Shown here: one piece after another, positions 22,544 to 62,012 of the stretch
Position numbering within the stretch: the first letter of the stretch is position 1
Layout: each line of letters begins with the position of its first letter
Virus record (IMG/VR): IMGVR_UViG_3300020576_002722
Coordinates: 1-64,000 of that record
Reading direction: 5' to 3' (one strand)
Source of the DNA: a virus
Lineage: Duplodnaviria > Heunggongvirae > Uroviricota > Caudoviricetes
DNA: 64,000 nt
Notes under the pieces: model-generated
Database searches by the model: none
What the model was told of the DNA's origin: nothing
What the model saw: only the letters and a program-made list of their open reading frames with translations
Translations under genes and position numbers: made by a program

Positions 22544-22565
22544 GCTTGTTTGTAATTGCAATATG

Positions 22566-22765: not shown

Positions 22766-23770
22766 ATGGCAGGAAAGCAAAGCGTTGCAGGGCAGATCGT
22801 AGAGCAGTATTGCAAGGACTTCCCGAAGATCAACAACGGAAGGCTGGCAAGAAAGATCGCAGAGGAACACCCACAGCTGGGGACCAGTGAGAAGATCCGA
22901 TGGCAGGTAAGGTTCTACCGTCTCCAGGCCGGGAAGACGCACCGCGACACCAGGAAGAAGAACGGTCACGCTCACATGGAGAAGGAGTCCGCTTCGAGCA
23001 ATGTGTACGAGCTTCCTGAGCCACGCATCATTGAGCGGGTCCCGTTCAAGATGCCAAGCTCGATCCGCAAGCTGCTTGTGTTCTCGGACATCCACGTACC
23101 GTACCACGACATGGACGTGGTCAAGCGTGGCATCGAGTTCGGCAAGAGCGAGGGGTGCGATGGGATTCTGCTGAACGGCGACACAATGGATATGTGTGGG
23201 CCATCGTCGCATGATCCGGATCCACGCAGCCTGGACCTTCCGTCCGAGCTGGAGGATGGACGCCAGTTCCTCAGGCACCTGAGGAATAAGTTCCCTAACA
23301 TCCCCATCTACTTCAAGGACGGGAATCACGAGAATAGGCTGGAGCGATATCTGATCAAGCAGGCACCCGTCCTGCTTGGCGTGGATGATTTCGAGCTGCG
23401 CAGCCTGCTCCGCATGGGCGAAGTGGGCATCCAGTGGATCGGCGACAAGCGCCTGTTCCTGGCCGGCAAGCTGGTCATCATACATGGCCACGAGTACAAG
23501 GGCGCGGGTGGTGTCAATCCGGCCAGGTGGCTCTCGCTGCGCACGTCCGGATCGATCATGTGTGGTCACTTCCACCGAAGCTCCTCGCACTTCTCCAAGT
23601 CCATCATGGACGAGATCTCTGGTGCCTGGTCTACCGGATGCATGTGCCACATGAGTCCCGACTACTCACCGTACAACCAGTGGAACCACGGGTTCGCGAT
23701 GGTCCACGTCAACAAGGACAAGACCTTCGAGGTTGAGAACAAGATGATGATCGGTGGCAAGGTACGATGA
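22766..23770 (+). CDS. calcineurin-like metallophosphoesterase
   Basis: The motifs appear in canonical order: FSDIHVPYHD, NGDTMD, GNHENR, IIHGHE, GHFH. Confidence 0.85.
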   Translation: MAGKQSVAGQIVEQYCKDFPKINNGRLARKIAEEHPQLGTSEKIRWQVRFYRLQAGKTHRDTRKKNGHAHMEKESASSNVYELPEPRIIERVPFKMPSSIRKLLVFSDIHVPYHDMDVVKRGIEFGKSEGCDGILLNGDTMDMCGPSSHDPDPRSLDLPSELEDGRQFLRHLRNKFPNIPIYFKDGNHENRLERYLIKQAPVLLGVDDFELRSLLRMGEVGIQWIGDKRLFLAGKLVIIHGHEYKGAGGVNPARWLSLRTSGSIMCGHFHRSSSHFSKSIMDEISGAWSTGCMCHMSPDYSPYNQWNHGFAMVHVNKDKTFEVENKMMIGGKVR

Positions 23771-24378: not shown

Positions 24379-24448
24379 GGCCGTGTAGCTCAGTTGGTAG
24401 AGCAGCCCCGACCGGGGTTGGTCGCAGGTTCGAGTCCTGCCACGGGTT
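24379..24448 (+). tRNA. tRNA-like gene with a defective anticodon arm (pseudo-tRNA or anticodon-less tRNA mimic)
   Basis: Parse: GGCCGTG-TA-GCTC-AGTTGGTA-GAGC-A-GCCCC-GACC-GGGGT-TGGTC-GCAGG-TTCGAGT-CCTGC-CACGGGT-T. The D- and T-arms are canonical. The anticodon arm is 3 nt short (4-nt or at best 6-nt loop), so no 7-nt anticodon loop can be drawn. There is a G2:G71 mismatch. Confidence 0.45.
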
Positions 24449-24570
24449 CAGGGAGTTCTTTTCTTCATGGTAGCAAAGGCGGGGTGATCACCGCCGAACT
24501 GGTAGTCGGAAGGCCGCAAGCCGGAGACGTTGTACCACATACGGCCTGTTATAGGACTTGGGGCCGTGCC

Positions 24571-24642
24571 GGACGGGTAGCTCAGATGGTAGAGCAGCCG
24601 CCTGAAAAGCGGTGGCCGGTCGTTCGAGTCGACCCCTGTCCA
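24571..24642 (+). tRNA. tRNA-Phe: tRNA-Phe (anticodon GAA)
   Basis: Cloverleaf drawn by hand: GGACGGG-TA-GCTC-AGATGGTA-GAGC-A-GCCGC-CTGAAAA-GCGGT-GGCC-GGTCG-TTCGAGT-CGACC-CCTGTCC-A. No encoded CCA. Confidence 0.9.
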
Positions 24643-24757
24643 CTATATGGCGGCGTAGCTAACCGCAAAGCTGGCAGATGTTGGGATGAACGCATATACT
24701 CCCGGCCCACGTTCAGAGATGCCACACAGCGCTGCTTTATTGACTCGGGCGCGAAAT

Positions 24758-24829
24758 TGGACAGTAGCACAGCGGTAGTGCAGCTCCCTGTTAAGGAGCA
24801 GGTCGGTGGTTCGATCCCATCCTGTTCAG
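24758..24829 (+). tRNA. tRNA-Asn: tRNA-Asn (anticodon GTT)
   Basis: TGGACAG-TA-GCAC-AGCGGTA-GTGC-A-GCTCC-CTGTTAA-GGAGC-AGGTC-GGTGG-TTCGATC-CCATC-CTGTTCA-G. Confidence 0.9.
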
Positions 24830-25069
24830 CAAACAAGCGTGTGCCCTGGCAAGGGTTTTGCTCCACGCCCGAAGTCACACACCCTTCAAGTGTGGCCTAT
24901 GTTTATGGGTGACGCGCCGGAGAGACGGCACCATTAGTAGCCAATGGTCCTGACGGGTAAAGCCGTGGGTAAAGCTACCATCCCGTGGGTGGAAACACGT
25001 GCAATGTGAACCGGCACATGACAGTGTATAAAACAACGGTGACTTGGTGCTTCAGAGAAAGTACCGCCT

Positions 25070-25141
25070 GCGCGGATGGTGTAATTGGTAGCATGTCAGC
25101 CTTCCAAGCTGAGGGTGCGGGTTCAAGTCCCGCTCTGCGCT
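25070..25141 (+). tRNA. tRNA-Gly: tRNA-Gly (anticodon TCC)
   Basis: GCGCGGA-TG-GTGT-AATTGGTA-GCAT-G-TCAGC-CTTCCAA-GCTGA-GGGT-GCGGG-TTCAAGT-CCCGC-TCTGCGC-T. The discriminator T at 25141 is followed by C, then the ATG of the next gene at 25143. Confidence 0.9.
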
Positions 25142-25142
25142 C

Positions 25143-27133: not shown

Positions 27134-27474
27134 GCACACAGATGGAGTTCCCTGGAGAGGGGCAATTCAAGGCCGAAATTCCCAAGGACTTCGACCCCAA
27201 GCAGATGATCGCTGACGCGGTCGATAAGCTGGAGGAGGAGATCCAACTCCCAAGGTCATTCCCAGGGATCCTGATGGTGGACCACAAGTTCACCGATGAC
27301 CCGGCCGTCAAGTACGAGCGTGCTCACGAGAAGAGGCGACTGAAGGCGTACCTCAAGGGACACCAGCGGTTCCAGCACGGGTGGCAGCCGGCCTATCCGA
27401 TCGGCCGCAGGCCCATCATGTTCCCCATGTACGAGGGACCCAAGAACGACAAACCAACACAAGCAAAAGCATGA
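27130..27474 (+). CDS. hypothetical protein (114 aa)
   Basis: ORF with ATGA coupling at both ends. Confidence 0.65.
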   Translation: MSTQMEFPGEGQFKAEIPKDFDPKQMIADAVDKLEEEIQLPRSFPGILMVDHKFTDDPAVKYERAHEKRRLKAYLKGHQRFQHGWQPAYPIGRRPIMFPMYEGPKNDKPTQAKA

Positions 27475-27692
27475 GAGAGCTGACCATTGGAGAGAAGCGG
27501 GTTCGCATTGAGTTCAACCCGAGCAACCAGGATAATGTCTTCCGGGTGAAGACCAAGATCGCAGAGCTGATCAATGAAGCAGAGGCCATCAAGGCTACGG
27601 TAACTGATCCTGAGGCAAAGCGTCTCGCAGCTCTCGCCTCCACTGATCTTGAGAACGCGGCCATGTGGCTGGTGAAAGCACTTACGGCATGA
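27471..27692 (+). CDS. small helical phage protein (73 aa)
   Basis: The start MRELTIGEKR overlaps the upstream stop (ATGA). The C-terminus LENAAMWLVKALTA resembles a widespread small phage protein family of unknown function, recalled from memory only. Confidence 0.55.
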   Translation: MRELTIGEKRVRIEFNPSNQDNVFRVKTKIAELINEAEAIKATVTDPEAKRLAALASTDLENAAMWLVKALTA

Positions 27693-28117
27693 GCAACGGA
27701 AGGATCATCGCCATCGATTTCGATGGCACATGCGTAACGCATGAGTACCCGAAGGTCGGAAAGGACATCGGCGCTGTGCCCGTCCTGAAGGCGCTGGTAG
27801 AGGCTGGACATGCCCTGATCCTGTACACGATGCGATCAGGTCAGACGCTCAATGATGCAGCCGACTGGTTCCGAAGGAACGGGATAGGGCTGACGGCCGT
27901 AAACGTGAACCCGTTCCAGTCTACCTGGTCCAGCTCGCCCAAGGTGTACGCTCAGTTGTACATCGATGACGCAGGGTTCGGGGCACCACTGGTGCTTCCG
28001 GATGGAGAACAGCGTCCGCACATTGATTGGGCGTTGGCTGAGAACTGGCTACGCCTGGCCGGGTACCTTCCCCAAGTCAAGGAAGCCAAGCAAGAAGAAC
28101 AAACCACCGAAGTATGA
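27689..28117 (+). CDS. HAD-superfamily phosphatase
   Basis: The start MSNGRIIAIDFDGTCV carries HAD motif I (DxDGT). ATGA coupling at both ends. Confidence 0.7.
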   Translation: MSNGRIIAIDFDGTCVTHEYPKVGKDIGAVPVLKALVEAGHALILYTMRSGQTLNDAADWFRRNGIGLTAVNVNPFQSTWSSSPKVYAQLYIDDAGFGAPLVLPDGEQRPHIDWALAENWLRLAGYLPQVKEAKQEEQTTEV

Positions 28118-30618
28118 TGAAGAAACTGTTACTGATCCTGTCACTGCTGGTCACCTCACTGTGCCCCGCCCAATACCCGGCGCAGACCGCGTCGGTACCC
28201 ATCTCTGCGGTGGCCAACGTGAGTCCCGCCAAGATCACGTTGACGTGGACCGCGTTCTCCGGGACGACCGGGTTCACCCTGTACCGCAAGACCAAGGCGC
28301 AGACCACCTGGACCCAGATCGCTACCCCGGCCAGCAATGCCACTACGTATGAGGACGCCACCGCAGTGGTCGGCACCTATTACGAGTACAAGCTGGTACG
28401 AACGGCGTCGGCCGGTACGGGTTACGGTTACATCGCCGCCGGGATCACGCTTCCTGTGGTCGACAGCCGTGGCAAGATGGTTCTCCTGGTGGCCGACAAC
28501 ATGACCACGCCGTTGGCAACTCCGCTATCGCAGCTTGTCGCTGACCTTCGCGGTGACGGATGGGTGGTACTGAGGCACGACGTCAGCACGAGCGCGTCAC
28601 CAACCACGATCAAGGCCGTGATCCAGTCCGACTACAACGCGGATCCAACGAACGTGAAGGCGGTGTTCATCTTCGGGCACGTCCCGGTACCCTACTCCGG
28701 CAACATCAACCCGGACGGGCACGGCAACCACCAGGGCGCTTGGCCCTGCGACGGCTACTACGGTGACATGGATGGAGTGTGGACCGACAGCACGGTCAAC
28801 AACACGTCGTCCAGCGCTGACGGAACCAGGAACGACAATGTACCGGGTGACGGCAAGTTCGATCAGAGCAGCTACCCGAGCGCACTTGAACTCCAGGTGG
28901 GTCGCGTTGACCTGTACAACATGGAGTCGTTCTCGTTCTACGCTGGACTCAGCGAGACGCAGCTGCTGACCAACTACCTGACCAAGCTGCACAACTTCAA
29001 GATCAAGCAGTTCACTCCGACGTTCAGGGGTGGCGTGTTCGACAACTTCGAGGACGTGTCGCAGCCATTGCTAGCTGGCGGATACCGCAGTGTGTTCTCC
29101 AATGTGGGCCCATCCAATACCACCGACTGGAACGGTAACGGTTCACCGTACAGCTCCTACATCAACGGGCAGAGCTACCTGTGGACGGCGACCGCCGGCG
29201 GTGGACAGTTCACCAGCTCGCAGAACGTGACCAGCACAGGTGAGCTGGCTCAGTCGGTGGTCAACGGTGCCATCTTCAACCAGATGATCGGCAGCTACTT
29301 CGGCGACTGGGACTGCATGAACAACTTCCTCAGGGCACCCTTGTGCAGCGGCAACGGTCTCACCAACTGCTACAACGGGCTCCCGGCCTTCTTCTGGTTA
29401 CACCACATGGGCATGGGCGACAATATCGGGTACGGTACCCTGGTCTCCATGAACAACGTGGCCACTACTGGGACCTATCAGCCACAGGGACCAGCCTACC
29501 AGGGGGTGAGCGCCGGCAATAACCGGGTGAACATGGGCCTCATGGGGGACCCCAGCCTCCGCCAGATCTCCGTGGCACCACCTTCCAACCTGGCCATCAC
29601 CAACTCAGGAGGGTTCGCCTCGTGGTCTTGGACGGCGGCAAGCGGATCACCGCTCGGCTACCACGTATACGACCTGGGTACCGGATCTACTGCACCGGTG
29701 AGGCTTACGACGGATCCAGTGAATGCCACCAGCTGGAGCCCTGGCACCGTCCCTTTCGTCGCGGCCCGTCAGTACATGGTACGAGCGGTCGTCCTCACGA
29801 CCGGGGCCACCGGCACTTACTACAACATGTCCCTGGGGGCACTGGGGACATCGGCATCTACTCCGACCATCCTTGTCAGCCCGCGTGCATTCCTGGAGGG
29901 ACCATACGTCAGCGGCGTAGGCACAATGTCCGACGGGCTCCGCACCCTGTCCACGTTTCCCCTCAGCGATCCATATCCAGCGCTCGGCTACGTACACGTT
30001 GGGACCGGCGCTACTGGAACCATCAACGCTTCGGCTCTCACTGTTACCGGCAACAACGCCATCGTTGACTGGGTTGTCGTTGAGATACGATCCAACGCTT
30101 CCCCGTATGCTGTCGTTGCAAGCAAGAGTGTCCTCGTCCAGCGCGACGGTGACGTTGTGGATCGGGATGGTACCTCGGCGGTATCGTTCCAGGTCGCGGC
30201 GGCTACATATCGGGTTGCGGTGAGGCATCGGAACCACCTGGGTATCATGTCTGGTGCCGGTATCGCGCTCACCACGACGACCACTGCCGTCAACTTCACG
30301 TCGACCAACACATCGATGTATGGAACCAGCCCGCGCAAGCAGATCATTGGATCATTCACCACCTGGGTCATGTACGCCGGCGATGTGAACTTCAACCGCC
30401 AGATCAAGTACGTGGGATCGGCCAACGACAACGACCCGATCCTCGTGGCCGTGGGTGGAACCACACCGAACAACACGATCACCAACACGTACAGCGGTGC
30501 CGACACGAACATGGACGGCCTGATCAAGTACACGGGCAGCCTGAACGATCGCGACATCGTCCTGGTGAACGTTGGCGGAACGACACCGAACGCAGTGCGT
30601 AACGCGCAGTTACCGTAA
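28114..30618 (+). CDS. large secreted protein with an FN3-like domain and C-terminal Asp-rich (calcium-binding/dockerin-like) repeats
   Basis: Signal peptide MMKKLLLILSLLVTSLCPAQ. The FN3-like segment is PAKITLTWTAFSGTTGFTLYRKTKAQTTW...YYEYKLVR. The C-terminal repeats are GDVNFNRQIKYVGSANDNDPILVAVGGTTPNN and GADTNMDGLIKYTGSLNDRDIVLVNVGGTTPNA. Confidence 0.8.
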   Translation: MMKKLLLILSLLVTSLCPAQYPAQTASVPISAVANVSPAKITLTWTAFSGTTGFTLYRKTKAQTTWTQIATPASNATTYEDATAVVGTYYEYKLVRTASAGTGYGYIAAGITLPVVDSRGKMVLLVADNMTTPLATPLSQLVADLRGDGWVVLRHDVSTSASPTTIKAVIQSDYNADPTNVKAVFIFGHVPVPYSGNINPDGHGNHQGAWPCDGYYGDMDGVWTDSTVNNTSSSADGTRNDNVPGDGKFDQSSYPSALELQVGRVDLYNMESFSFYAGLSETQLLTNYLTKLHNFKIKQFTPTFRGGVFDNFEDVSQPLLAGGYRSVFSNVGPSNTTDWNGNGSPYSSYINGQSYLWTATAGGGQFTSSQNVTSTGELAQSVVNGAIFNQMIGSYFGDWDCMNNFLRAPLCSGNGLTNCYNGLPAFFWLHHMGMGDNIGYGTLVSMNNVATTGTYQPQGPAYQGVSAGNNRVNMGLMGDPSLRQISVAPPSNLAITNSGGFASWSWTAASGSPLGYHVYDLGTGSTAPVRLTTDPVNATSWSPGTVPFVAARQYMVRAVVLTTGATGTYYNMSLGALGTSASTPTILVSPRAFLEGPYVSGVGTMSDGLRTLSTFPLSDPYPALGYVHVGTGATGTINASALTVTGNNAIVDWVVVEIRSNASPYAVVASKSVLVQRDGDVVDRDGTSAVSFQVAAATYRVAVRHRNHLGIMSGAGIALTTTTTAVNFTSTNTSMYGTSPRKQIIGSFTTWVMYAGDVNFNRQIKYVGSANDNDPILVAVGGTTPNNTITNTYSGADTNMDGLIKYTGSLNDRDIVLVNVGGTTPNAVRNAQLP

Positions 30619-30640
30619 CCAGATAGGAGGCCGGTCAATG

Positions 30641-30676
30641 AAAGGGGCTAAGGAGGTTGCACTCCGAGGCCCCTTT
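30641..30676. terminator. long-loop hairpin AAAGGGGC...GCCCCTTT after the secreted-protein gene
   Basis: 8-bp stem with a 20-nt loop, followed by CGATTT. A weak terminator candidate. Confidence 0.35.
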
Positions 30677-30694
30677 CGATTTACCTGGAATACG

Positions 30695-30702
30695 TATCTT
30701 TG
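30695..30702 (+). promoter_or_regulatory. TAnnTTTG -7 box (TATCTTTG) for the HNH gene
   Basis: It lies 7 nt upstream of the ATG at 30710, in a low-GC patch. Confidence 0.4.
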
Positions 30703-30709
30703 ATTCCAA

Positions 30710-31105
30710 ATGGATATCAACTGTACTAAGTGTGGTTCCCTGATCAGGGCCGACAACAGAAGGTCAAAGAGTCGCTGGTGCAAGGAGTGTCACAAGGAGT
30801 ACGACAGAGCCAGGTATGCGCAGAACGCAGACTCAAGAAAGGCAGCGATCAAGGCACAACGCATATCTGTTCAAGAGTTTGTAGACGAGATCAAGAGAAC
30901 GTCTCCATGCACTGACTGCGGGGGATATTTTCATCCGGCCGTAATGGAATACGATCATCTGCCAGGAAGCAAGAAGACGGAGACTCCGTCAAACCTTGCC
31001 AGGACAGGAAGGAAGAACAGGTTCATTGAAGAGATCAAGGGGTGCGAACTGGTGTGCGCAAACTGCCACAGGATGAGGACCGTTCTACGCAGGAGGAAGC
31101 GCTAG
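30710..31105 (+). CDS. HNH endonuclease (free-standing)
   Basis: There are Cys pairs at the N-terminus (CTKCG...CKECH) and the motifs YDHLPGSKK...ELVCANCH. Local GC is lower. Confidence 0.8.
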   Translation: MDINCTKCGSLIRADNRRSKSRWCKECHKEYDRARYAQNADSRKAAIKAQRISVQEFVDEIKRTSPCTDCGGYFHPAVMEYDHLPGSKKTETPSNLARTGRKNRFIEEIKGCELVCANCHRMRTVLRRRKR

Positions 31106-31581
31106 AGCTTCAGTCCGGCCAGGTCGAAGATACCGATGCACTCCAGTAGCATCTGGTGCCCTCTGGTAGTGAGCGAGCAGTCGGACACGTCGCCGTTGTG
31201 CTCGATGAATCCTTCGCGATCGAGCATGGCCAGGATCGTATCCAGGTGGCCGGATGGGAACATCCTTCGGAGCACGCCGTCCCACTTGATCCAGTGACAG
31301 AACCCCTGCTGGGGGTCGTCGCGCTCGTCGATGATGTAGAGGGCTGACGCGATGTGCGACAGGACTACCATAGAGGAGTCGCCGGCCGCCATACCCATCA
31401 GCCTGATCATGGCCAGCGGCTCATTGATGAACTGGTCAGACTCGTTGCCGTACAGCTCGATCTGTTCAGACAAGGTCCACAGGTCCGGATAGAGCGGATG
31501 CGGGATGATCAGCGGCTGCGACTCGATCTCTATGATGTTGAGCTGGTCCTCAAGCAGGGATACGGTATCTGACATGGCCAT
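31102..31581 (-). CDS. hypothetical protein (159 aa)
   Basis: Clean ORF. Its stop overlaps the convergent HNH stop (CTAG). Confidence 0.6.
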   Translation of the reverse strand: MAMSDTVSLLEDQLNIIEIESQPLIIPHPLYPDLWTLSEQIELYGNESDQFINEPLAMIRLMGMAAGDSSMVVLSHIASALYIIDERDDPQQGFCHWIKWDGVLRRMFPSGHLDTILAMLDREGFIEHNGDVSDCSLTTRGHQMLLECIGIFDLAGLKL

Positions 31582-31606
31582 CTATTCGATACAGCTAAGG
31601 TACGGA

Positions 31607-31990
31607 TCAGCGCCCGGATCGAGGGTAGAAGACCCCTTTCATGTAGTCGTTCACGTCTGTCATGAACTCCTCTAGGGAGCGGCATTCATAGACTATCCAT
31701 CCAGCCTCTGAGAACCTGATCTGCATCTCTTTCTGTGACTCGGATAGCTTGCCTTTGTCAGACTTCATCTCGATGGCCATGCCGCAGACGTGCGTATCTC
31801 CATACGTCCTGGGATGGCACACCAGGATATCAGGGACTCCGGCCAGTACCCCCATGTCCTTCCACAATTTCCCCATGTGTGGACTCCCGGCATCTCTGCC
31901 ATTGGGAGGGTGGAACGCCAGGACGTTAGGGTACTGTAACCGGAGCCACTTGATACACGCCTTCTGGAGCGCTTGTTCTGGACGCTTCAT
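31607..31990 (-). CDS. VRR-NUC (PD-(D/E)xK) nuclease
   Basis: The start MKRPEQALQKACIKWL has an ATGA overlap with the RNA ligase stop. The catalytic motifs are GVPDILV ... GMAIEMKSDKGKLSESQ. Confidence 0.8.
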   Translation of the reverse strand: MKRPEQALQKACIKWLRLQYPNVLAFHPPNGRDAGSPHMGKLWKDMGVLAGVPDILVCHPRTYGDTHVCGMAIEMKSDKGKLSESQKEMQIRFSEAGWIVYECRSLEEFMTDVNDYMKGVFYPRSGR

Positions 31991-33063
31991 TCCTCGTACT
32001 TGAGAAGGAACTGAGGATTGATCGCCTTGAACGATATGCGTCCACGGGTCACCGTCTTGCCGGTGATGAAGGTCTCGGTCATCTCTTCCAGGCTGCGCAC
32101 CACGATCCCCTCGGCCCATACGTCGGGGTTGATGGCGCTCTTGCGGGTGGCGAAACCAACCAGCTCGTCAACACTGAGGGCACCAAGGGTGAGGCAGTCG
32201 ATGTACGGGACCATCTTCAGGTCCATCGATCCGAATGCGACTGCGGCATCGCTAGGCAGGTACGGCTTGCCGGCATCGATGTCGAACACGTTGAAGAAGA
32301 GAACCTTGCGGCCGGTCAGCTTGTACTTGTTGCCCTGGATCCCTTCGCCGATCAGCTCGCCCTGGATGGCGATGTTCTTGCCGTAGTCGCGGAGCTTCTG
32401 CTCGACGTTCATCTCTCGGGCGTACTGCCAGAACGCATTCCTTTCGTCCTCCTTCAGCTCCAGGTTGCGCGAGCAGACCCCGAACTCCCCGTTGTACAGG
32501 TAGAAGGTAGCGCTGCTGCCGTCCATCTTCTCGCGGATCTCCACCTGCGCTGCGGCGTACTTGTCCAGGATGCCTGGCATGTTCTGGATCCGCTCCTCGT
32601 CCGTCTTGTGGATGAAGGATGGGAAGTAGCCGCGCACGGTACCGCCCAGGCAGGCCGGGATGGCGGGCTCGTACTTGATGATGCCGAGCAGCTCTGTCAC
32701 ATCGTACCCTTCTGCTGACAAGCCCAAGGCTGCGAACAGCTCGTGCTCGGCCGTGATAACATCGGCAAGGATCGACACCGGCATCATCAGGCCCTGGGAT
32801 ACCTGTCCCTTGAGTTTGATGGTGCGCACACGCATGTGGCGTGGCTTCATGAACTCGAACTCTGGTCGGTCAGGAAGGATGCTGTCCGGCTCTATGAATA
32901 CGATCGAATCGCCAATTCTGTGTCCGGCATCGTTCCTGATCACGCACTTCCACCCCAATACGCTGGCTACGGACACTTCGTCGGCTCCGGGTATTGGCTG
33001 GATGTCAGAGATCGTCTGTATGCTTGCAAGTTTTCTGCTCATGATTTTGTGTTTGAGAGCCAT
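31987..33063 (-). CDS. ATP-dependent RNA ligase (DRB0094/Rnl5-like)
   Basis: The N-terminal module is RKLASIQTISDIQPIPGADEVSVASVLGWKCVIR. Nucleotidyl-transferase motif I is EKMDGSS (KxDG). Downstream motifs are EGIVVR and ISFKAINPQF. Confidence 0.85.
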   Translation of the reverse strand: MALKHKIMSRKLASIQTISDIQPIPGADEVSVASVLGWKCVIRNDAGHRIGDSIVFIEPDSILPDRPEFEFMKPRHMRVRTIKLKGQVSQGLMMPVSILADVITAEHELFAALGLSAEGYDVTELLGIIKYEPAIPACLGGTVRGYFPSFIHKTDEERIQNMPGILDKYAAAQVEIREKMDGSSATFYLYNGEFGVCSRNLELKEDERNAFWQYAREMNVEQKLRDYGKNIAIQGELIGEGIQGNKYKLTGRKVLFFNVFDIDAGKPYLPSDAAVAFGSMDLKMVPYIDCLTLGALSVDELVGFATRKSAINPDVWAEGIVVRSLEEMTETFITGKTVTRGRISFKAINPQFLLKYEE

Positions 33064-33458
33064 TCGATCGCTGATCGTAGGCGGTTAACGTCATCTTTCA
33101 AGTGGCCTATTCCCTTATTACAGGCAGAGCACAGGAGTCCCCTGACCCTACCGGTCTTGTGGTCGTGATCTACTGTCACTGTATCCATTGCTTGACCCTT
33201 GGTCTTTGTGGGCATCTTCATCTTGCACTTGCATATACCACACTCTCCGCGAAACGCCATCCACATGGCGTCAAACTCGCCCGGATCAAGCCCATACTTC
33301 TTGCTCAGGTGCCAGTTCCTGCGATATATGGATATGTCTGCATGTATGCGTCTATGCGATCCATTGCATTTGTAACAACGGACTGACTTATTTCCAGCCG
33401 TACCGGTTCCGCAGTCAATGCAGTGGCCTCTGATCCTACGCGTCTTGACTAACTCCAT
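33039..33458 (-). CDS. recombination endonuclease VII-like protein
   Basis: The sequence CGICKCKM...VDHDHKTGRVRGLLCSACNKGIG is the endo VII signature. Confidence 0.85.
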   Translation of the reverse strand: MELVKTRRIRGHCIDCGTGTAGNKSVRCYKCNGSHRRIHADISIYRRNWHLSKKYGLDPGEFDAMWMAFRGECGICKCKMKMPTKTKGQAMDTVTVDHDHKTGRVRGLLCSACNKGIGHLKDDVNRLRSAIEWLSNTKS

Positions 33459-33906
33459 TTGCTTCGTTGCGTAATGTATCCCTTCTCATGAACATGATGA
33501 TCCACGACTCCTGATCACCGTGCTTGCCAGATTCAAGATCCTCCCGGTTATTGTCATGCCAAGACTGGTGACAATGGCCGCAAACGATGCGGATATTCCG
33601 AGGATCCGTCTTGTAGTTCCTATACGTTCCCCTCTCAAGGAGGTGGGAGAAGTTGATCGGCTGCGGTGGATCGGATATTGGAATGCCGCATACCTCACAG
33701 CAGTGTTCCCGTAGGCCAAGATCATCACCGGTCTCCCAGATCTCCAGGGCTGCTTTCCACCAGCCCTTGTTTGATGGTGCCCTCTTCCGAAGTGGCTTCC
33801 TCTTGCTCTCCAGCTTCGACGCCTTCGTCACCAGGCCCCTCTTCATCATCTCCGTCAACGATGGCTTGGTGAACGGCTTCCTTGCGAGCTGCTTTTTCCT
33901 GAGCAT
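33436..33906 (-). CDS. HNH/NinG-like nuclease (start uncertain)
   Basis: It carries CCEVCG...HLLERGTYRNYKTDPRNIRIVCGHCH. Its 5' 180 nt overlaps the 3' end of the upstream ORF in another frame. Confidence 0.6.
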   Translation of the reverse strand: MLRKKQLARKPFTKPSLTEMMKRGLVTKASKLESKRKPLRKRAPSNKGWWKAALEIWETGDDLGLREHCCEVCGIPISDPPQPINFSHLLERGTYRNYKTDPRNIRIVCGHCHQSWHDNNREDLESGKHGDQESWIIMFMRRDTLRNEANGVSQDA

Positions 33907-34183
33907 TGGTGGTGAGTTCGTTGAACAGTGTGTCGGCGGACTCCTGGTCCATGCGGATCCAGGCGATCTGGCCGACCATCTCGTTGGACCAGAGCCGTTC
34001 GCCGGCCGGGATCACGTTGCCTGCGATTGTTCCGCCTTTGTCGCGGTGGATGTAGCCAACCTCGAAGGCTACCTGCCTTCCCTTGTCGCGCTGGATGAAC
34101 ATGGCGACATGCTCGTTGCGCTTGACCAGGTCGTAGTCGTACCCGTTCTTGCGGTAGTGTTCCTTGAGTGGGTTCATGATCAT
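33725..34183 (-). CDS. hypothetical protein with acidic C-terminal tail
   Basis: ATGA overlap with the upstream gene. The tail is DGDDEEGPGDEGVEAGEQEEATSEE. Confidence 0.55.
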   Translation of the reverse strand: MIMNPLKEHYRKNGYDYDLVKRNEHVAMFIQRDKGRQVAFEVGYIHRDKGGTIAGNVIPAGERLWSNEMVGQIAWIRMDQESADTLFNELTTNAQEKAARKEAVHQAIVDGDDEEGPGDEGVEAGEQEEATSEEGTIKQGLVESSPGDLGDR

Positions 34184-34488
34184 GCGTCTACGAGTTGAAG
34201 TTCATCTTCGTTCACTGTGTCCTTGTCGAGTACCTTGTCGGTGGGCGCGAACAGCTGCTCCAGGATCCAGGTCTGCGGATCATTGTGCCGCTCCATGCCG
34301 CAGATACATCGGCCGGCCGGCCTCATTCCTGGTGGCACCTGTTGTGTCACGCCGACATCAACGGACATCGTGCCGCAGTTGAGGCATCTGGTCTGGTCGA
34401 TCACATGGTAGTGTTTGCCTACCTGTACCAGGTTCTGGGAGTGCCGCTTGATGCAGACCACCTCCGATCCGATGTGTATCCCGCTCAT
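34180..34488 (-). CDS. hypothetical Cys-containing protein (102 aa)
   Basis: The ORF carries CLNCG...CICG, a possible zinc ribbon. Confidence 0.55.
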   Translation of the reverse strand: MSGIHIGSEVVCIKRHSQNLVQVGKHYHVIDQTRCLNCGTMSVDVGVTQQVPPGMRPAGRCICGMERHNDPQTWILEQLFAPTDKVLDKDTVNEDELQLVDA

Positions 34489-34661
34489 AGCACAGACAGT
34501 ACTGGTGACAGTATTGCGGCGATGATCGCGATCATGATCACCCTGGCTACAAGCGACACGACGACGGGCTTATCGGCGTGCGATCTCCTTGCCCTCCTGG
34601 CATCCGATGCACCATGATGTACCTTGATGGATGCGTGCCTGGTAACGTTGTTCGTCTTCAT
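34485..34661 (-). CDS. small membrane protein (58 aa, below the ORF-track cutoff)
   Basis: Hand translation: MKTNNVTRHASIKVHHGASDARRARRSHADKPVVVSLVARVIMIAIIAAILSPVLSVL. The stop forms an ATGA overlap with the next start at 34488. Confidence 0.4.
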   Translation of the reverse strand: MKTNNVTRHASIKVHHGASDARRARRSHADKPVVVSLVARVIMIAIIAAILSPVLSVL

Positions 34662-34673
34662 GAGGCTGCAATG

Positions 34674-35057
34674 TTACTCACCGTTAGGGTTCCATCCAAG
34701 TCCTTGTGACGGAACGTTGGGCTTAGGCTCCTCGTCCGGGAACAAGCCTGGGATCTCGGGTGGCTTCTGCATGGTCGGCTGCCTCTTGATAGACTTCTTC
34801 CGGTCGATCATGTCGCACGCCTCTTGGATGGTGATCGGGTCTCCGCTGGCCGACCTGCACACGATGCGCTTGATTCCGCTCTCTGTGCCGACGACCTGCT
34901 TCCTGCCGGCCTTCTTGTCGTTCTCGTCACGGGGTACCTCGTCCCGGCCCGTGGTCCTCCACGCCTCGAACGACCCGTCAGGGTGCCGGTACACCGCGTA
35001 CCCGTTCCAGTGCATCACGTACTCAGGCTGACTTGGTGGGATCGATAATTGGTTCAT
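34674..35057 (-). CDS. hypothetical protein (127 aa)
   Basis: ORF of coding-like composition. Confidence 0.55.
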   Translation of the reverse strand: MNQLSIPPSQPEYVMHWNGYAVYRHPDGSFEAWRTTGRDEVPRDENDKKAGRKQVVGTESGIKRIVCRSASGDPITIQEACDMIDRKKSIKRQPTMQKPPEIPGLFPDEEPKPNVPSQGLGWNPNGE

Positions 35058-35244
35058 TGATGAAGTGGTCTTTTGCTGTGTTGACTGCGCTTACGAACAG
35101 GGTGGCCTCGTGCAGTGATCGGCCAGGCATCACCTTGACGTTGAACTTCTTCTTGGCCAGGATGTACTGCTCGATCAGCCAGATGCCTTCCGGGATGGAT
35201 GTCTCGGCCTTGTGCGCCATCTCCTTGGCCATGAAGTTGGTCAT
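35023..35244 (-). CDS. hypothetical protein (73 aa)
   Basis: The start MTNFMAKEMAHK has an ATGA overlap with the primase stop. Confidence 0.5.
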   Translation of the reverse strand: MTNFMAKEMAHKAETSIPEGIWLIEQYILAKKKFNVKVMPGRSLHEATLFVSAVNTAKDHFINEPIIDPTKSA

Positions 35245-36410
35245 GATATGGTGATGTTGTTGACGTCCAGGTCCAGTTCCTTGATCATGTGATCGATGGC
35301 TGGATTGATCTCGATCAGCTTGTCGATGGCCGGTATCCCGCAATTATCCCCCACATTCTGCGGGATGAGCGTGGGCTTGATCATCTCCTTGGCCTCTGGC
35401 GTCACCTCGATCCCTTCCATCTCACCCTTGAGGATGAGCGTCGGAGTGCCACTATTTGGCTTCGGGTCCTCGAACTCGTCATCGATGGCGTGGCCCTCGA
35501 TCAGAAGGTCAGCAATGTCGATCCCGATCTCGCGCTCGGCGTCACTGGCCACCGTCTCCACGTAGGAGCTGACGTGCATCGACAGGAACAGTGGCTCATA
35601 CTGGTCGGCCAGCTTGTTCCACTCGACGAACCCCTTGCCGGCGTCCGGGAAGATGTACACCCTGCGCCCGTTGAGCGGAAGCATCTTGCGTCCCGACATG
35701 TTTCCGCTGCCGCCCGTGGCTACCCATACGATGTCCGGGTAGAAGAAGCGACCGACCAGTGCGGTCTTCTCGCTCTCTACCAGGGCCACCTTGGCGTCGG
35801 GGTACGCGGCCAACAGGTGCTCACCGAAGAGGCATTGGATAGCCCCGATCTCGCTCCCCTTCTTGCCAGTGATGATGCGGCTGATCCAGGTAGGGGTCAC
35901 ATCCTTGTCCCGGCGGAACCCCTTGTACTGCATCAGCTTGCCGTTGAGCAGTTCGCCTTTGGCATTGAACTGCCAGAACACGGTGGCGTTCTCCCACTTC
36001 TCGCTGCCCTTGATCTTGGGGAAGGTGCCGACACAGTACTCGGACCAGATGGGCTCGATCGCCTCTCCGAACTTCGCCCGCAGATCCCTCCACAGGGGGT
36101 TCATCCCGTGGCTGCGGGTCTTCTCGTACTTACCAGCCGGCACCCTCCAGTCGTCGCGCACCGGCTCCGGTGGCGGCAGAGGCTTCCGTTCAACCTGGCC
36201 GAAGCCACCCTTCGATCTTATGTAGTCCATCGCTGTGTACAGGTATCCGCAACTGTTCTCCCGATCGCACACACCCACCTCTTCGGGAAGAAGCTCTCCA
36301 GACACCGTGTCCATGTACCGGCGGAACCTCTTTCGACCACACTGTGGACACTGGGTCTTCTCTGTTCCGTGGGCCAGTCGGTAGCGTGCGGCCGGGTTCT
36401 TCAGACTCAT
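35241..36410 (-). CDS. DNA primase (zinc finger plus Toprim)
   Basis: The start MSLKNPAARY has an ATGA overlap with the helicase stop. The zinc finger is CPQCGRKRF...CDRENSCGY. The Toprim glutamate is VALVESEKTAL and the acidic motif is YIFPDAG. Confidence 0.8.
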   Translation of the reverse strand: MSLKNPAARYRLAHGTEKTQCPQCGRKRFRRYMDTVSGELLPEEVGVCDRENSCGYLYTAMDYIRSKGGFGQVERKPLPPPEPVRDDWRVPAGKYEKTRSHGMNPLWRDLRAKFGEAIEPIWSEYCVGTFPKIKGSEKWENATVFWQFNAKGELLNGKLMQYKGFRRDKDVTPTWISRIITGKKGSEIGAIQCLFGEHLLAAYPDAKVALVESEKTALVGRFFYPDIVWVATGGSGNMSGRKMLPLNGRRVYIFPDAGKGFVEWNKLADQYEPLFLSMHVSSYVETVASDAEREIGIDIADLLIEGHAIDDEFEDPKPNSGTPTLILKGEMEGIEVTPEAKEMIKPTLIPQNVGDNCGIPAIDKLIEINPAIDHMIKELDLDVNNITIS

Positions 36411-37642
36411 TCCTGCCAGATGATTCGTTGGGTAGGGAGATCGTAGTGGAGCTGTCCCTCGTACCGGTCCCCGTACCTGTTCTTCCACATGGTGAAGTCG
36501 ATCAAGTACTTGTTATCAGGGTTGGTCAGGATGGATAGTCCGGAGGTGGCGTCGTTGGCCGGCACAGAGGACCCGTATACGTCGTCAGCCTCTGGCATGG
36601 ACGTCGGGGTCTCCAGCTTGCGCGGCTGCGCCAGTGCCATGATGGCCACGTCGCAAGCCAAAGAGATCCTGGTTATCTCATTGGAGACAGCCTCGATCCG
36701 ATCCACGGTAGACATCTGAGTGGCCGTCCGGACCCGTTGCAGATAGTCGATCACGATGAACTGTACGCCGTGCTCCTGTACCATCTCGCGGATGATCGGG
36801 TGCAGCATCTCCAGGTACAGGGAGTGGCCAGGTTGCCAGTGGATCTTGCCCCAGTGATCAGGCTTCGGTGTCCTCTTGTGCTTGTCCACGGTCTCCCGTT
36901 CCAGGTGGGACATGCGGCCGCTCTTGATGTGATTCCCGTTCACGCCGGTGTCCATCGAGATCAGCCTGTTCATGAGATCCTCTACCCGCATCTCGAACGA
37001 GAGGAACCCGCTCGATATGCCCTGCATTCGTAGGTTCCTCACGGCGTTCAGGGCGATGGCCGTCTTGCCCTGGCCCCTCTTGCCCATGACGATGTTCATG
37101 GTGCCCGGATAGTGCTCCCACACGTCGTCAAGGGGGCCGAACCCGAGCCTCAGTCCAGGCTTGTCGACCTTCCCGATCGATGCGGCCATGTCGAAGTCGT
37201 AGTCGGTCATCAGGTGACCGGACAGGTTGCTGTGCTTGGCGGCGAACGAGGTGATCGCCAGGATGGCAGGAGAGATATCGCCCGGCCTGGACGAGAGGAT
37301 CAATGTCTCCTCCAGCTTCTTCTGGAAGTCCTTCCGCAGCTTGATCCTGGCCACTACCGATACGGTGTGCTCCAGGTTCAATGCATCGGGAACCTCCATG
37401 ATAGCGGCAACAATCCTGTCGGCGTGCTCGTCGCTCCAAGCCTGTGCCCGGAACTCCTCACGCAGGGTGTCGACCGTGACATCGAACGACTCCCGATAGA
37501 TGCAGTCGCCCATGTCGAAGGCAAGCCGCATGTATGGATCCTCGAAGTGATCAGAGGTGACCGACCTGACGACGTATCCTGCCCTGCCGGTGACCATCGC
37601 CTTGATGATCTGTGCCTCGGCAACTACTGGTTCGTAGCTCAA
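36407..37642 (-). CDS. dnaB: replicative DNA helicase (DnaB family)
   Basis: It has an N-terminal DnaB-like domain, Walker A GKRGQGKTAIAL, the segment LSFEMRVEDLMNRL, and Walker B IVIDYLQRV. Confidence 0.9.
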   Translation of the reverse strand: MSYEPVVAEAQIIKAMVTGRAGYVVRSVTSDHFEDPYMRLAFDMGDCIYRESFDVTVDTLREEFRAQAWSDEHADRIVAAIMEVPDALNLEHTVSVVARIKLRKDFQKKLEETLILSSRPGDISPAILAITSFAAKHSNLSGHLMTDYDFDMAASIGKVDKPGLRLGFGPLDDVWEHYPGTMNIVMGKRGQGKTAIALNAVRNLRMQGISSGFLSFEMRVEDLMNRLISMDTGVNGNHIKSGRMSHLERETVDKHKRTPKPDHWGKIHWQPGHSLYLEMLHPIIREMVQEHGVQFIVIDYLQRVRTATQMSTVDRIEAVSNEITRISLACDVAIMALAQPRKLETPTSMPEADDVYGSSVPANDATSGLSILTNPDNKYLIDFTMWKNRYGDRYEGQLHYDLPTQRIIWQE

Positions 37643-37941
37643 AGTTTTCTGAGCCCAGGGCTCGTGTTGTTCGGGTCAAACATACCCTTTTTAGGCTCCG
37701 GTACAAAGAACTTTTTCTCCTGGAAGATGCCGTTCCAGTTCTGCGACATCGAGTACTCGATCGCGGCGATCACGTCAGCCTCGCTGGTGAAGTCCCTGAA
37801 CAGGCGCTTGATCAGCATGTGTTCTCCGATCGGCTTGTATGCCTGCTTCTTCTCCTTCTTGTAGGCGATCCACAGGTCGAATGCGTCCCAGAATGCATTC
37901 GTCACCCACAGTGGATTAGGTACTGGCTTCAGCTCTTTCAT
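37639..37941 (-). CDS. hypothetical protein (100 aa), possible replication accessory factor
   Basis: ATGA overlap with the helicase start. The function is guessed from position only. Confidence 0.55.
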   Translation of the reverse strand: MKELKPVPNPLWVTNAFWDAFDLWIAYKKEKKQAYKPIGEHMLIKRLFRDFTSEADVIAAIEYSMSQNWNGIFQEKKFFVPEPKKGMFDPNNTSPGLRKL

Positions 37942-37946
37942 GGCGG

Positions 37947-38687
37947 CTATCCGTTGTATGATCGACCGACATCTTGCGATGAGTCGTCTGACCTTGTGGG
38001 TATGTATTGGCCTCCGTCCGACTTGATGGACCCCTTCACGGTTCCATTGGTCTTCATGAAGTGCCTGAATCGTTCCCTATCTTCGGGCTTCCAGTCCATC
38101 TCCGGCTTGACCGGCCCCAGGTCATCCTCCATCTTCAGATCCTCCACATACTCCTCCAGTTGCTTGGGTTTCGCTGCAACGAAGGAGAACCAGTCGGGCT
38201 TCTCGTACTTGTTGGAGCCCTTCATGCCGGCGTTGATAGAGCTGGCTGCCATGAGCCACTTGATGTCGTCGTATACCTCGGAGGATGTCTGTATCCTGCG
38301 CACGCCATAGATGATCGTAGCGTGGTCCCTGCTGTACGCTGCGGCGATCGATACATAGGTCAGCCCCATCTTGCGCAGCAGCCACCAGGCCACCATGCGT
38401 GCATTGGCCGCCGTGGCATTGTACCTGAGACCGGATCGCATGATCTCGTCGGTCAGCCCGTGGCACAGTACCTCGCTCATGGCCGACAGTACAGCCTCGT
38501 TCGCCTTGGTAACGAACTCGGGCGAAGACATCGATTGCGACATCTTCTGTGAGGCACGCAGCTGCTTGTCCCGAAGGATGCAACCTGCCACGACTCCATC
38601 GATGTCCTTTGTCCCGAGGGACGCCCTCTGTCTGATGTACTTGGCCAGGTGGCCAGGTACCGTGATCGTCATCATCTCTGCTTCCAT
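37947..38687 (-). CDS. DnaA C-terminal (domain IV) HTH-like protein, putative replication initiator
   Basis: The sequence NARMVAWWLLRKMGLTYVSIAAAYSRDHATIIYGVRRIQ matches the DnaA domain IV pattern (R..A.YL.R..T..S...IG..F.RDH.TV.H....I). The ATG lies 1 nt after the tRNA-Arg discriminator. Confidence 0.65.
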   Translation of the reverse strand: MEAEMMTITVPGHLAKYIRQRASLGTKDIDGVVAGCILRDKQLRASQKMSQSMSSPEFVTKANEAVLSAMSEVLCHGLTDEIMRSGLRYNATAANARMVAWWLLRKMGLTYVSIAAAYSRDHATIIYGVRRIQTSSEVYDDIKWLMAASSINAGMKGSNKYEKPDWFSFVAAKPKQLEEYVEDLKMEDDLGPVKPEMDWKPEDRERFRHFMKTNGTVKGSIKSDGGQYIPTRSDDSSQDVGRSYNG

Positions 38688-38688
38688 G

Positions 38689-38760
38689 AGGCCCCGCCAG
38701 GAGTCGAACCTGGATCTAGCGTTTAGGAAACGCTCGTTCTGTCCATTGAACTATGAGGCC
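38689..38760 (-). tRNA. tRNA-Arg: tRNA-Arg (anticodon CCT)
   Basis: Sense strand: GGCCTCA-TA-GTTC-AATGGACA-GAAC-G-AGCGT-TTCCTAA-ACGCT-AGAT-CCAGG-TTCGACT-CCTGG-CGGGGCC-T. It is followed by C, then ATG (38687). Confidence 0.9.
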
Positions 38761-60508: not shown

Positions 60509-60749
60509 TCTCGCAAGCTATGACCTGCGTATTGTCCAGGGTCTCGCAGTGCCGGCATCCGGATGTCGTGGACTCGATCCACTCGTGGCCGTTGGTACAC
60601 TGGAACACCTTGATCGATACGGTTCGATCGTGGAAGTGATAGCCGTCGTCATCGTTGATCCTGAGGAGGGGCCCCTCTTGCTCGGTCTCCTCCATCAACT
60701 GTGGCCTGCTTCTCAGACCATCCCTCTTGCACACCGGACATTCGCTCAT
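60483..60749 (-). CDS. small zinc-ribbon protein (88 aa)
   Basis: CPVC...C..GH...CRHC. ATGA overlap with the macrodomain stop. Confidence 0.55.
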   Translation of the reverse strand: MSECPVCKRDGLRSRPQLMEETEQEGPLLRINDDDGYHFHDRTVSIKVFQCTNGHEWIESTTSGCRHCETLDNTQVIACENESQQPQH

Positions 60750-61993: not shown

Positions 61994-62012
61994 CTGTCGT
62001 TAACATGACCCT

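Follow-up and report, generated by a model that had tools for sequence, protein, structure and literature searches.

Our analysis of a 64,000-nucleotide stretch of tailed-phage DNA (hereafter the window) identifies a genuine RNA ligase of the Rnl5 family (DraRnl/NgrRnl type, TIGR02306) whose active site, judged by its conserved residues, appears intact, and which is encoded in a replication/recombination operon. We tentatively propose, with somewhat less than even confidence, that this is a sealing-only enzyme that stands alone, acting on nicks with 3'-OH and 5'-PO4 ends, and that a metallophosphoesterase (MPE), a HAD phosphatase and several tRNA genes in the same genome are independent features. 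A preliminary description had joined all of these into a possible RNA-repair toolkit modeled on T4; the individual enzymes it named hold up well, and the toolkit does not. The ligase and the genes surrounding it are as follows:

31987-33063, minus strand: Rnl5-family (DraRnl/NgrRnl-type) ATP-dependent nick-sealing RNA ligase, 358 amino acids, with Pfam, NCBIfam and PDB matches
31607-31990, minus strand: VRR-NUC nuclease, 127 amino acids (PF08774, E 1.6e-08; PHROG 824 and 5702)
31102-31581, minus strand: 159-amino-acid protein without a Pfam or PHROG match, encoded by the last gene of the operon
33039-33458, minus strand: Endonuclease VII-type (HNH-like) nuclease, 139 amino acids (PF02945, E 4.8e-20; PHROG 2633)
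33436-33906, minus strand: HNH endonuclease-like protein, 156 amino acids (PF01844), upstream in the same operon
35241-36410, minus strand: Zn-ribbon/DUF6371 protein, a replication gene upstream of the ligase
36407-37642, minus strand: DnaB-like helicase, likewise upstream
37639-37941, minus strand: O-like protein, 100 amino acids, likewise upstream
37947-38672, minus strand: DnaA_C-like protein, likewise upstream

The ligase places an OB-type module (residues 12-96; PF21189, 88.7 bits) N-terminal to its nucleotidyltransferase domain (residues 173-338; PF09414 RNA_ligase, 81.9 bits; both Pfam). Its NCBIfam score against TIGR02306 (RNA_lig_DRB0094), 177.4 bits, passes the curated cut-off of 151.15, and residues 10-326 match the Naegleria gruberi RNA ligase (PDB 5cot) with an E value of 5.7e-54. 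The EKMDGSS motif, from which the preliminary description had rightly named a DRB0094/Rnl5-type enzyme, spans residues 178-184, and its K179 is predicted to be the nucleophile. Further predicted catalytic residues are D181, S198-R199, E236, F257, E318, K346, R158 and T154, and R10, D60 and K130 of the N-terminal domain are the counterparts of NgrRnl Arg4, Asp53 and Lys121. Conservation across 34 dereplicated homologues reaches 90% or more for each of K179/D181, S198-R199, E236, F257, E318 and S344-F-K346. Motif V, assigned through the homologue alignment and the SVK motif of DraRnl, carries no C-terminal appendage, with only 12 residues beyond K346; the last 60 amino acids gave no match in the PDB. 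M8 (ATG at 33042-33040), rather than M1, may be the likely start, yielding a protein of 351 amino acids. The gene is an ordinary addition to a known family that is widespread in phages: Rnl5 ligases have been noted in phages since 2007, and the phage collection searched here holds 341 records with an Rnl5 homologue. A megablast search of positions 28000-36000 against phage records returned no match, and an exact 45-mer search of IMG/VR returned none either.

The operon runs in the order HNH, EndoVII, ligase, VRR-NUC, downstream of DnaB, and a terminator scan placed a terminator-like hairpin at 30990-30976 (minus strand), after the gene for the 159-amino-acid protein. The ATG of VRR-NUC overlaps the ligase stop codon (ATGA), and the TGA stop of the EndoVII-type gene overlaps the ATG of M8 in turn. 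The operon is one of replication/recombination genes. The GC3 of the EndoVII-type gene is low, at 0.57, and this gene is therefore probably of a mobile or homing type. In L093/L094, the syntenic position is occupied by a homologue of the HNH endonuclease-like protein with 34% identity.

Does this neighborhood mean that the ligase persists mainly because flanking homing-type endonucleases spread the locus, contributing little in its present host? Within 2 kb there are three genes of the HNH/EndoVII type, 10 of 37 dereplicated phage lineages have a GIY-YIG endonuclease in the vicinity of their Rnl5 homologue, and a syntenic relative lacks the ligase altogether. Against such hitch-hiking, which we regard as very unlikely, the catalytic residues are all conserved, and an identical protein is found on 12 contigs from several samples; over the ligase region, the six contigs examined share 97.6-100% identity with the window. 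The GC3 of the ligase, 0.80, also resembles that of the core genes, a codon composition that marks it as a long-resident gene.

The genomic context raises a second alternative, namely a DNA-directed role in which the ligase would seal nicks bearing a 3' ribonucleotide run, ribo-patch or primer-derived, in replicating or recombining phage DNA, beside co-translated junction-resolving nucleases. We consider this possible, though on balance doubtful. The only context specific to the window is indeed DNA-related and speaks against our sealing-only model: the gene is ATGA-coupled to the EndoVII-type and VRR-NUC genes and lies just downstream of those for DnaB and the Zn-ribbon/DUF6371 protein. VRR-NUC homologues, present in 352 phage records, are annotated as VRR-NUC or Holliday-junction resolvase, including resolvases of small phages without an RNA ligase. 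No DNA ligase was recognized in about 75 kb of window and flanks, and among the 37 lineages an ATP-dependent DNA ligase is found near the Rnl5 homologue in six and an SSB in three. Deletion of DraRnl renders Deinococcus sensitive to ionizing radiation and delays genome reassembly, for which the authors propose ribo-patch sealing (PMC5397189); DNA repair after irradiation is the sole known genetic phenotype of any Rnl5 enzyme (PMC5397189), a further point against the sealing-only model. On the other hand, ordinary DNA nicks are not sealed by Rnl5 enzymes (PMC1807946), the syntenic relative replicates without the ligase, VRR-NUC occurs near none of 80 other ligase loci, and the EndoVII-type gene looks, from its atypical GC3, more like a mobile endonuclease than a companion of the ligase. 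Moreover, the strongest conserved neighbors of Rnl5 elsewhere are RNA-repair genes.

Twelve of the 37 lineages encode a Pnk-type kinase and a small MPE on the same strand as the Rnl5 homologue and no more than 10 kb from it; in six of those 12, both are at most 2 kb away. The ligase-linked kinase matches T4 Pnk and the kinase domain of CthPnkp. The nearest homologues of the window ligase (42-48% identity; L013, L014, L015, L021 and L026) reside in Rnl1/MPE/Pnk-kinase clusters. At least one RNA-repair-type gene is found within 10 kb in 17 lineages and none in the other 20, the latter count weighing against the sealing-only model. Because kinase and small MPE are linked to Rnl5 in those 12 lineages, a role of phage Rnl5 ligases in RNA repair is supported as a general idea. 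By their gene content, the kinase-MPE-Rnl5 loci of other phages appear to be true heal-and-seal cassettes; the window holds none of these partner components.

The search for such partners covered the window together with 4.2 kb to its left and 6.5 kb to its right, in total about 75 kb out of the 78 kb or more that make up the contig. Walker-A strings in the six-frame open reading frames of at least 60 amino acids in the window belonged to the DnaB helicase only, in agreement with the preliminary description, which had recognized no polynucleotide kinase P-loop there and had suggested looking further afield. Profiles of Pnk-type kinases gave no match at E≤0.1 in the window and its 10.7 kb of flanks, and profile searches of the same 75 kb detected no small MPE, Rnl1, Thg1, CCA-adding enzyme or cREC. 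A 5'-OH kinase, a ligase-linked 2',3'-cyclic phosphodiesterase/3'-phosphatase and an Rnl1/Rnl4-type ligase, which together characterize heal-and-seal repair, were all absent from the searched sequence.

The features that the preliminary description had drawn into its toolkit, with those directly associated with them, are:

22766-23770, plus strand: metallophosphoesterase (MPE), 334 amino acids (PF00149, 26.3 bits against a cut-off of 21.5)
27689-28117, plus strand: HAD phosphatase of the BT0820 type, with IAIDFDGT and YIDD motifs and matches to PDB 2obb and in NCBIfam
27471-27692, plus strand: Acb2/Tad1-like open reading frame, 73 amino acids, paired with the HAD gene
27460-28097, plus strand: strain-variable cassette of 638 bp, containing the Acb2/Tad1-like frame and most of the HAD gene
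24379-24448, plus strand: atypical tRNA-like gene (Rfam)
within 24571-25142, plus strand: tRNA-Phe(GAA), tRNA-Asn(GTT) and tRNA-Gly(TCC), forming with the atypical gene a cluster that spans 24379-25142
38688-38760, minus strand: tRNA-Arg(CCT)

Spelled out in full, that proposal would have the MPE and/or the HAD phosphatase heal ends bearing a 2',3'-cyclic phosphate or a 3'-phosphate, a kinase, either unseen or from the host, phosphorylate the 5'-OH, the ligase seal and the phage tRNAs serve as backup, countering anticodon nucleases as T4 Pnkp/Rnl1 counter PrrC. We regard it as improbable. The catalytic motifs of all three enzymes are intact, and RNA-repair sets described from phages combine a ligase and a kinase with phosphatases of the HAD or calcineurin-like kind (PMC7824862); the lack of any kinase in about 75 kb nonetheless counts against it. 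The MPE is what it was said to be, a calcineurin-like enzyme with DxH, GD, GNH, H and GHxH residues invariant across 52 homologues. Its gene, however, lies 8 kb from the ligase on the opposite strand, adjoins lysis genes and belongs to a family found near Rnl5 in only one of the 37 lineages. We judge the MPE independent of the ligase because its family occupies the same position in the syntenic relative that lacks the ligase and differs from the ligase-linked MPE family, and because the structures closest to the MPE are those of PolD-DP1 and Mre11-type nucleases and not that of the Pnkp phosphatase. Searched by sequence against the PDB at E≤10, it returned no match, and likeness to the Pnkp type beyond the shared MPE fold is absent. 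We also considered the possibility that it is a long form of the ligase-linked small MPE and rejected it, since a profile of 22 small MPEs misses it.

The DxDGT phosphatase was likewise correctly recognized; it matches BT0820 (PDB 2obb) with an E value of 9e-17 and the BT0820-type HAD model of NCBIfam with 1e-23, the latter below cut-off. T4 Pnkp is not among its matches in a PDB search at E≤10. Assignment as a 'Swiss-army-knife' RNA-repair HAD was rejected, as Pfam, including the SAK-HAD models, gave no match even at E 0.5. Of 31 phage lineages with a HAD of the BT0820 type, 5 do encode it beside a Pnk-type kinase, as in gp61-gp60 of crAss001, a point in favor of the toolkit. No kinase adjoins the HAD gene in the window, where its neighbor is the Acb2/Tad1-like frame, and a recurrent cassette of these two was rejected in turn, the pairing being absent by BLAST from the 31 other HAD lineages. 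The 638-bp cassette is missing from four contigs (96.6-99.2% identical), all of which retain the ligase, and the HAD family occurs near none of the 80 ligase loci and in none of the 37 lineages; we judge the HAD to be strain-variable and no fixed companion of the ligase. As for the tRNAs, the four previously reported are present, and the many mimics reported with them are not: Rfam, at its gathering score, yields five tRNA matches in the 64 kb, the fifth being the atypical gene. The T4 Pnkp/Rnl1-PrrC analogy is the wrong model because Rnl5 enzymes, as described below, perform poorly on single-stranded or loop breaks.

In conjunction with published biochemistry, we propose the following sealing-only model, in which the family, the conserved catalytic residues, the arrangement of genes and the missing partners are taken directly from the analysis, and from which we infer substrate and biological role. 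Rnl5 enzymes seal duplex nicks with an RNA 3'-OH strand and are weak on single strands or loop breaks; on single-stranded RNA, DraRnl shows no circularization and NgrRnl is feeble (PMC1807946, PMC4408790, PMC7261155). The phage ligase would be expressed from the HNH-EndoVII-ligase-VRR-NUC operon without dedicated end-healing partners. By homology, K179 would become adenylylated and pass AMP to the 5'-phosphate, which would then be joined to the 3'-OH RNA end at a duplex nick. Because there is no kinase or linked phosphoesterase, the ligase would be limited to reversing breaks that already bear 3'-OH and 5'-PO4 ends. Its most likely substrates may be nicks in base-paired RNA, for example tRNA stems cut by metal-dependent nucleases of the Toprim or PIN type. 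Cleavage by the Toprim nuclease P2-OLD yields 5'-P and 3'-OH termini, and T4 Rnl1 as well as the nick-sealing Rnl2 rejoined a tRNA with a single anticodon-stem nick without any prior healing (PMC12445682). This precedent, the apparently intact active site, Rnl5 biochemistry, the missing kinase, the independence of the MPE, the strain variability of the HAD, the RNA-repair neighbors elsewhere and the long residence of the ligase gene all favor the sealing-only model.

It is conceivable, if rather unlikely, that the stand-alone Rnl5 ligase serves a minimal form of RNA repair without healing, resealing nicks in base-paired tRNA or structured RNA made by Toprim/OLD-PARIS-Septu or PIN defense nucleases that leave 3'-OH/5'-PO4 ends. 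If so, kinase and phosphatase would be needless, and the larger kinase-MPE-Rnl5 cassettes might be an extended version against metal-independent (cyclic-phosphate-forming) nucleases.

What is the relevance of a lone Rnl5 ligase? The window is a clean natural case of the ligase without healing enzymes, and lends itself to asking if nick sealing by itself shields a phage from nucleases whose products can be ligated directly, or if the enzyme serves DNA transactions. It also offers a lesson for annotation: the joint presence of ligase, phosphoesterase and tRNA genes in a phage genome does not amount to a repair system, for which linkage and co-inheritance must be demonstrated. For Rnl5, the Pnk-type kinase and the small MPE of about 213 amino acids are the real partners.

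With NgrRnl (PDB 5cot) and DraRnl (DRB0094), the window ligase shares the two-domain layout without a C-terminal appendage, and all ATP- and metal-contacting residues of NgrRnl have counterparts in it. The spacing of motifs IV and V differs, with 28 residues compared to 14 in NgrRnl and 21 in DraRnl (residue numbers from PMC7261155 and PMC1807946), and, unlike these enzymes, the ligase is phage-encoded and known here from its sequence. T4, with Pnkp and Rnl1 acting on PrrC-cleaved tRNA-Lys, resembles the window in combining a phage ATP-dependent RNA ligase, tRNAs and a HAD-fold phosphatase in one genome. The window, however, encodes no polynucleotide kinase, its ligase is a nick-sealing Rnl5 and not a loop-sealing Rnl1 (PMC4408790), and its HAD is of the strain-variable BT0820 type without a sequence match to Pnkp. 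Bacterial Pnkp/Hen1, in which Clostridium thermocellum Pnkp combines kinase, MPE phosphatase and Rnl4 ligase, likewise pairs an MPE-fold enzyme with a ligase in one genome, whereas the parts in the window are unfused, non-adjacent and not co-inherited, and lack a kinase and Hen1.

Among phage systems, the cassettes on the IMG/VR contigs L013, L014, L076, L084, L089 and L092 have ligases homologous to that of the window (28-48% identity). These have a contiguous, same-strand Pnk-type kinase and small MPE, and often add Rnl1, Thg1, a CCA-adding enzyme or cREC; no member of these families could be detected in the window or in its flanks. T4 Rnl2 is, like the window ligase in our model, a stand-alone phage ligase for duplex nicks; it belongs to another ligase family distinguished by a C-terminal domain, whereas Rnl5 carries an N-terminal OB module.

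The minus-strand ORF at 31987-33063 encodes a 358-aa RNA ligase that, as the preliminary description had it, belongs to the Rnl5 (DRB0094-type) family, all testable features of which it displays. Pfam places PF21189, the clade's OB-type N-terminal module, at residues 12-96 and PF09414 (RNA_ligase) at 173-338; PHROG 968, "RNA ligase", matches with an E of 4e-70; the curated NCBIfam equivalog TIGR02306 (RNA_lig_DRB0094) scores 177.4 bits against a cut-off of 151.15; and the Naegleria gruberi RNA ligase crystal-structure sequence, 5cot, aligns with residues 10-326 (E 5.7e-54). Because every catalytic position has a counterpart in an alignment of 34 dereplicated phage homologues, with residue roles taken from PMC7261155 and PMC1807946, the enzyme is very probably active.

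Catalytic positions of the window ligase
Motif I: E178-K179-M-D181-G-S-S, K179 being the predicted nucleophile
Motif Ia: S198-R199
Motif III: E236
Motif IIIa: F257
Motif IV: E318
Motif V: S344-F-K346
ATP-contacting residues: T154, R158
N-domain residues: R10, D60, K130

Translation may in fact begin at M8: the ATG there (33042-33040) shares nucleotides with the TGA that ends the EndoVII-type gene upstream, and with this start the Arg4 equivalent falls at position 3.

In transcription order, the minus-strand block comprises a DnaA_C-like protein, a 100-aa O-like protein, a DnaB-like helicase, a Zn-ribbon/DUF6371 protein (whose primase assignment is only positional), four small ORFs, an HNH gene, an EndoVII-type nuclease, the ligase, VRR-NUC and a 159-aa orphan. 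The sequence ATGA joins EndoVII stop to ligase M8 start and ligase stop to VRR-NUC start, and a terminator scan found no terminator-like site on this strand between HNH and the 159-aa gene, the nearest downstream one lying immediately after the latter. These overlaps and the terminator-free stretch predict co-expression of the ligase with replication and recombination genes. Its GC3 of 0.80 resembles that of core genes; atypical values were obtained for the HAD phosphatase cassette (0.62-0.68) and for two single genes, the EndoVII-type one (0.57) and the HNH one on the plus strand (30710-31105; 0.64).

The parent contig spans at least 78 kb, about 75 kb of which is covered by the window and two near-identical metagenome contigs, L179 on the left (4.2 kb, 99.7% identity; structural genes) and L011 on the right (6.5 kb, 99.9% identity; ribose-phosphate pyrophosphokinase, small ORFs and packaging genes). 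The initial failure to recognise a kinase is borne out here: among six-frame ORFs of at least 60 aa in the window, Walker-A strings occur only in the DnaB helicase, and profiles of Pnk-type (5'-OH polynucleotide) kinases gave no match at E<=0.1 in the window or, as had been proposed for search, in its flanks. In the same ~75 kb (window, L179 1-4181, L011 1-6508), neither a DNA polymerase nor a DNA ligase was recognised, despite the DnaB, DnaA_C-like and O-like proteins. Large orphans without a family match span 834 aa (28114-30618), 647 aa (54120-56063) and 504 aa (58994-60508), the last with a sub-threshold Glycos_transf_2 match as its sole hit; the virion module includes a 2753-aa ORF (5820-14081) and a 1503-aa ORF left of the window.

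What accompanies Rnl5 in other phages? Homologues occur in 341 phage records. We surveyed 80 IMG/VR loci with 10-kb flanks, forming 37 lineages at 80% ligase identity; all ORFs were clustered, and recurrent neighbour families were named with Pfam and re-searched with profiles.

Families near Rnl5, in lineages out of 37 (raw counts without a random-locus control; many loci come from one sample, mitigated by ligase-identity dereplication)
Small MPE (metallophosphoesterase) of ~213 aa: 13
AAA_33 kinase: 12, always with the small MPE (12/12)
GIY-YIG endonuclease: 10
Rnl1-type ligase: 6
Thg1: 6
ATP-dependent DNA ligase: 6
CCA-adding enzyme: 5
cREC (cyclic-phosphate processing) domain: 5

The PDB matches of this kinase are T4 polynucleotide kinase and, for CthPnkp and Pnkp1, their kinase domains. 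Six lineages (L089, L013, L092, L084, L076, L014) have kinase, MPE and Rnl5 within 2 kb, all on the same strand. Rnl5-centred heal-and-seal cassettes therefore exist in other phages, in line with what has been published on RNA repair in phages (PMC7824862). They are contiguous and occur in several unrelated lineages, many of them accompanied by Rnl1, Thg1, CCA-adding enzyme, cREC, DUF2828/DUF7788 or DUF5662. The window ligase's most similar homologues (42-48% identity) sit in such clusters. The window shows no detectable member of any of the 14 recurrent neighbour families, and its VRR-NUC family lies near Rnl5 in 0/37 lineages.

Two phosphatase-type genes had been put forward as partners of the ligase; one of them proves to lie in a two-gene cassette:

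22766-23770, plus strand: MPE, above the Pfam Metallophos cut-off
27471-27692, plus strand: Acb2/Tad1-like ORF, 73 aa (Pfam Acb2_Tad1_hairpin E 5.8e-10, above cut-off)
27689-28117, plus strand: HAD phosphatase with DxDGT and DD motifs

Both genes and their motifs are real, but the evidence speaks against partnership for either. The MPE has five motifs, all invariant among 52 homologues, a confident AlphaFold model (pLDDT 90.5) and a family of more than 1000 mostly metagenomic members; that family lies near Rnl5 in 1/37 lineages, and the profile of the small ligase-linked MPE fails to pick up the window MPE. A distantly related phage, L093/L094, shares the window's order of giant virion protein, tail genes, lysis genes, MPE, small genes and ~800-aa protein, then, on the opposite strand, HNH homologue, DUF6371 and DnaB; it retains the MPE (49% identity) but has neither ligase nor VRR-NUC.

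The HAD resembles BT0820-type capless HADs (PDB 2obb, E 9e-17; NCBIfam E 1e-23, under the family cut-off). Four contigs (L001, L002, L003, L005) lack a 638-bp segment bearing it (27460-28097), with a short micro-homology (ACAAACCA) at the junction; apart from this gap they share 96.6-99.2% identity with the window, and their ligase is identical. The segment is a strain-variable accessory cassette, whose Acb2/Tad1-like gene suggests a function in disturbing nucleotide signalling rather than in healing RNA ends, and it is a possible anti-defence cassette directed at such signals; BLAST did not find the pairing in 31 other HAD lineages. The HAD family is found near Rnl5 in 0/37 lineages and adjoins a Pnk-type kinase in 5/31 (crAss001 gp61-gp60 among them); its remaining contexts hold none of the searched RNA-repair families. 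A Pnkp-like role is possible elsewhere and is not indicated in the window.

HNH, EndoVII, AP2-type and other putative homing-endonuclease genes are unusually dense in the window, with GC3 below core genes where computed, and flank accessory genes (ligase, MPE, NAMPT):

22005-22547, minus strand
30710-31105, plus strand
33039-33458, minus strand (EndoVII-type)
33436-33906, minus strand (HNH-like, homologue in L093)
61983-62534, minus strand (183 aa, GC3 0.41)

Within 33436-34183 on the minus strand, the HNH-like ORF overlaps a 152-aa ORF (33725-34183) by 182 nt in a different frame; public gene calls keep the latter and leave the HNH-like and EndoVII-type genes uncalled. The 183-aa ORF, possibly a homing-endonuclease insertion, splits NAMPT (62622-63581 and 61201-61986) in an NAD+ salvage/ADP-ribose block (60746-63581, minus strand, and L011 1-9763) that also holds a Macro-domain protein (60746-61204) and, directly past the window end, ribose-phosphate pyrophosphokinase. 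NAMPT is missing from relatives L010 and L012.

ARAGORN and Rfam agree on four tRNAs, the number given in the preliminary description, and identify them as Phe, Asn, Gly and Arg. The "many tRNA mimics" are not confirmed, because at the Rfam gathering score the 64 kb show nothing further except one atypical gene:

24379-24448, plus strand: tRNA-like gene, Rfam 45.8 bits, no anticodon assigned by ARAGORN

Its anticodon loop, CCGACCG, reads GAC (Val), with C at positions 33 and 37, where U and a purine, respectively, are usual. The gene may encode a non-canonical tRNA or one that evades nucleases.

By homology, the ligase would follow the classic three-step reaction and seal 3'-OH/5'-PO4 duplex nicks with RNA as the 3'-OH strand; single-stranded RNA is not circularised by DraRnl and is a poor substrate for NgrRnl (PMC1807946, PMC4408790). 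With no kinase found in the ~75 kb and no linked phosphoesterase, its substrates would be limited to breaks already ligatable. Tentatively, we propose nicks within base-paired RNA regions, which the family-wide neighbourhoods favour. The Toprim nuclease P2-OLD leaves 5'-P/3'-OH ends, and a tRNA nicked once in the anticodon stem was resealed without healing by T4 Rnl1 and the nick-sealing Rnl2 (PMC12445682). The local operon of replication and recombination genes instead favours the sealing of ribonucleotide-terminated nicks in phage DNA, a role proposed for DraRnl from a radiation-sensitivity phenotype (PMC5397189); with the wider neighbourhoods against it, we consider this rather unlikely. 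Joint repair by ligase, MPE, HAD and tRNAs against anticodon nucleases, the earlier proposal, is improbable, given that no kinase was found in the ~75 kb, neither phosphoesterase is linked to the ligase and the ligase is not of the loop-sealing type. That it is largely a passenger gene we hold to be more improbable still.

Known heal-and-seal systems thus differ from the window in kinase, linked phosphoesterase and ligase type. Phage Rnl5 homologues have been known since 2007 (PMC1807946), with a further mention in 2015 (PMC4408790); sets of RNA-repair genes in phages have been described (PMC7824862), and a Pakpunavirus genome paper offers a like annotation-level reading (PMC12846349). The window ligase adds to these known homologues, and its natural ligase-only configuration could serve as a test case for healing-free repair.
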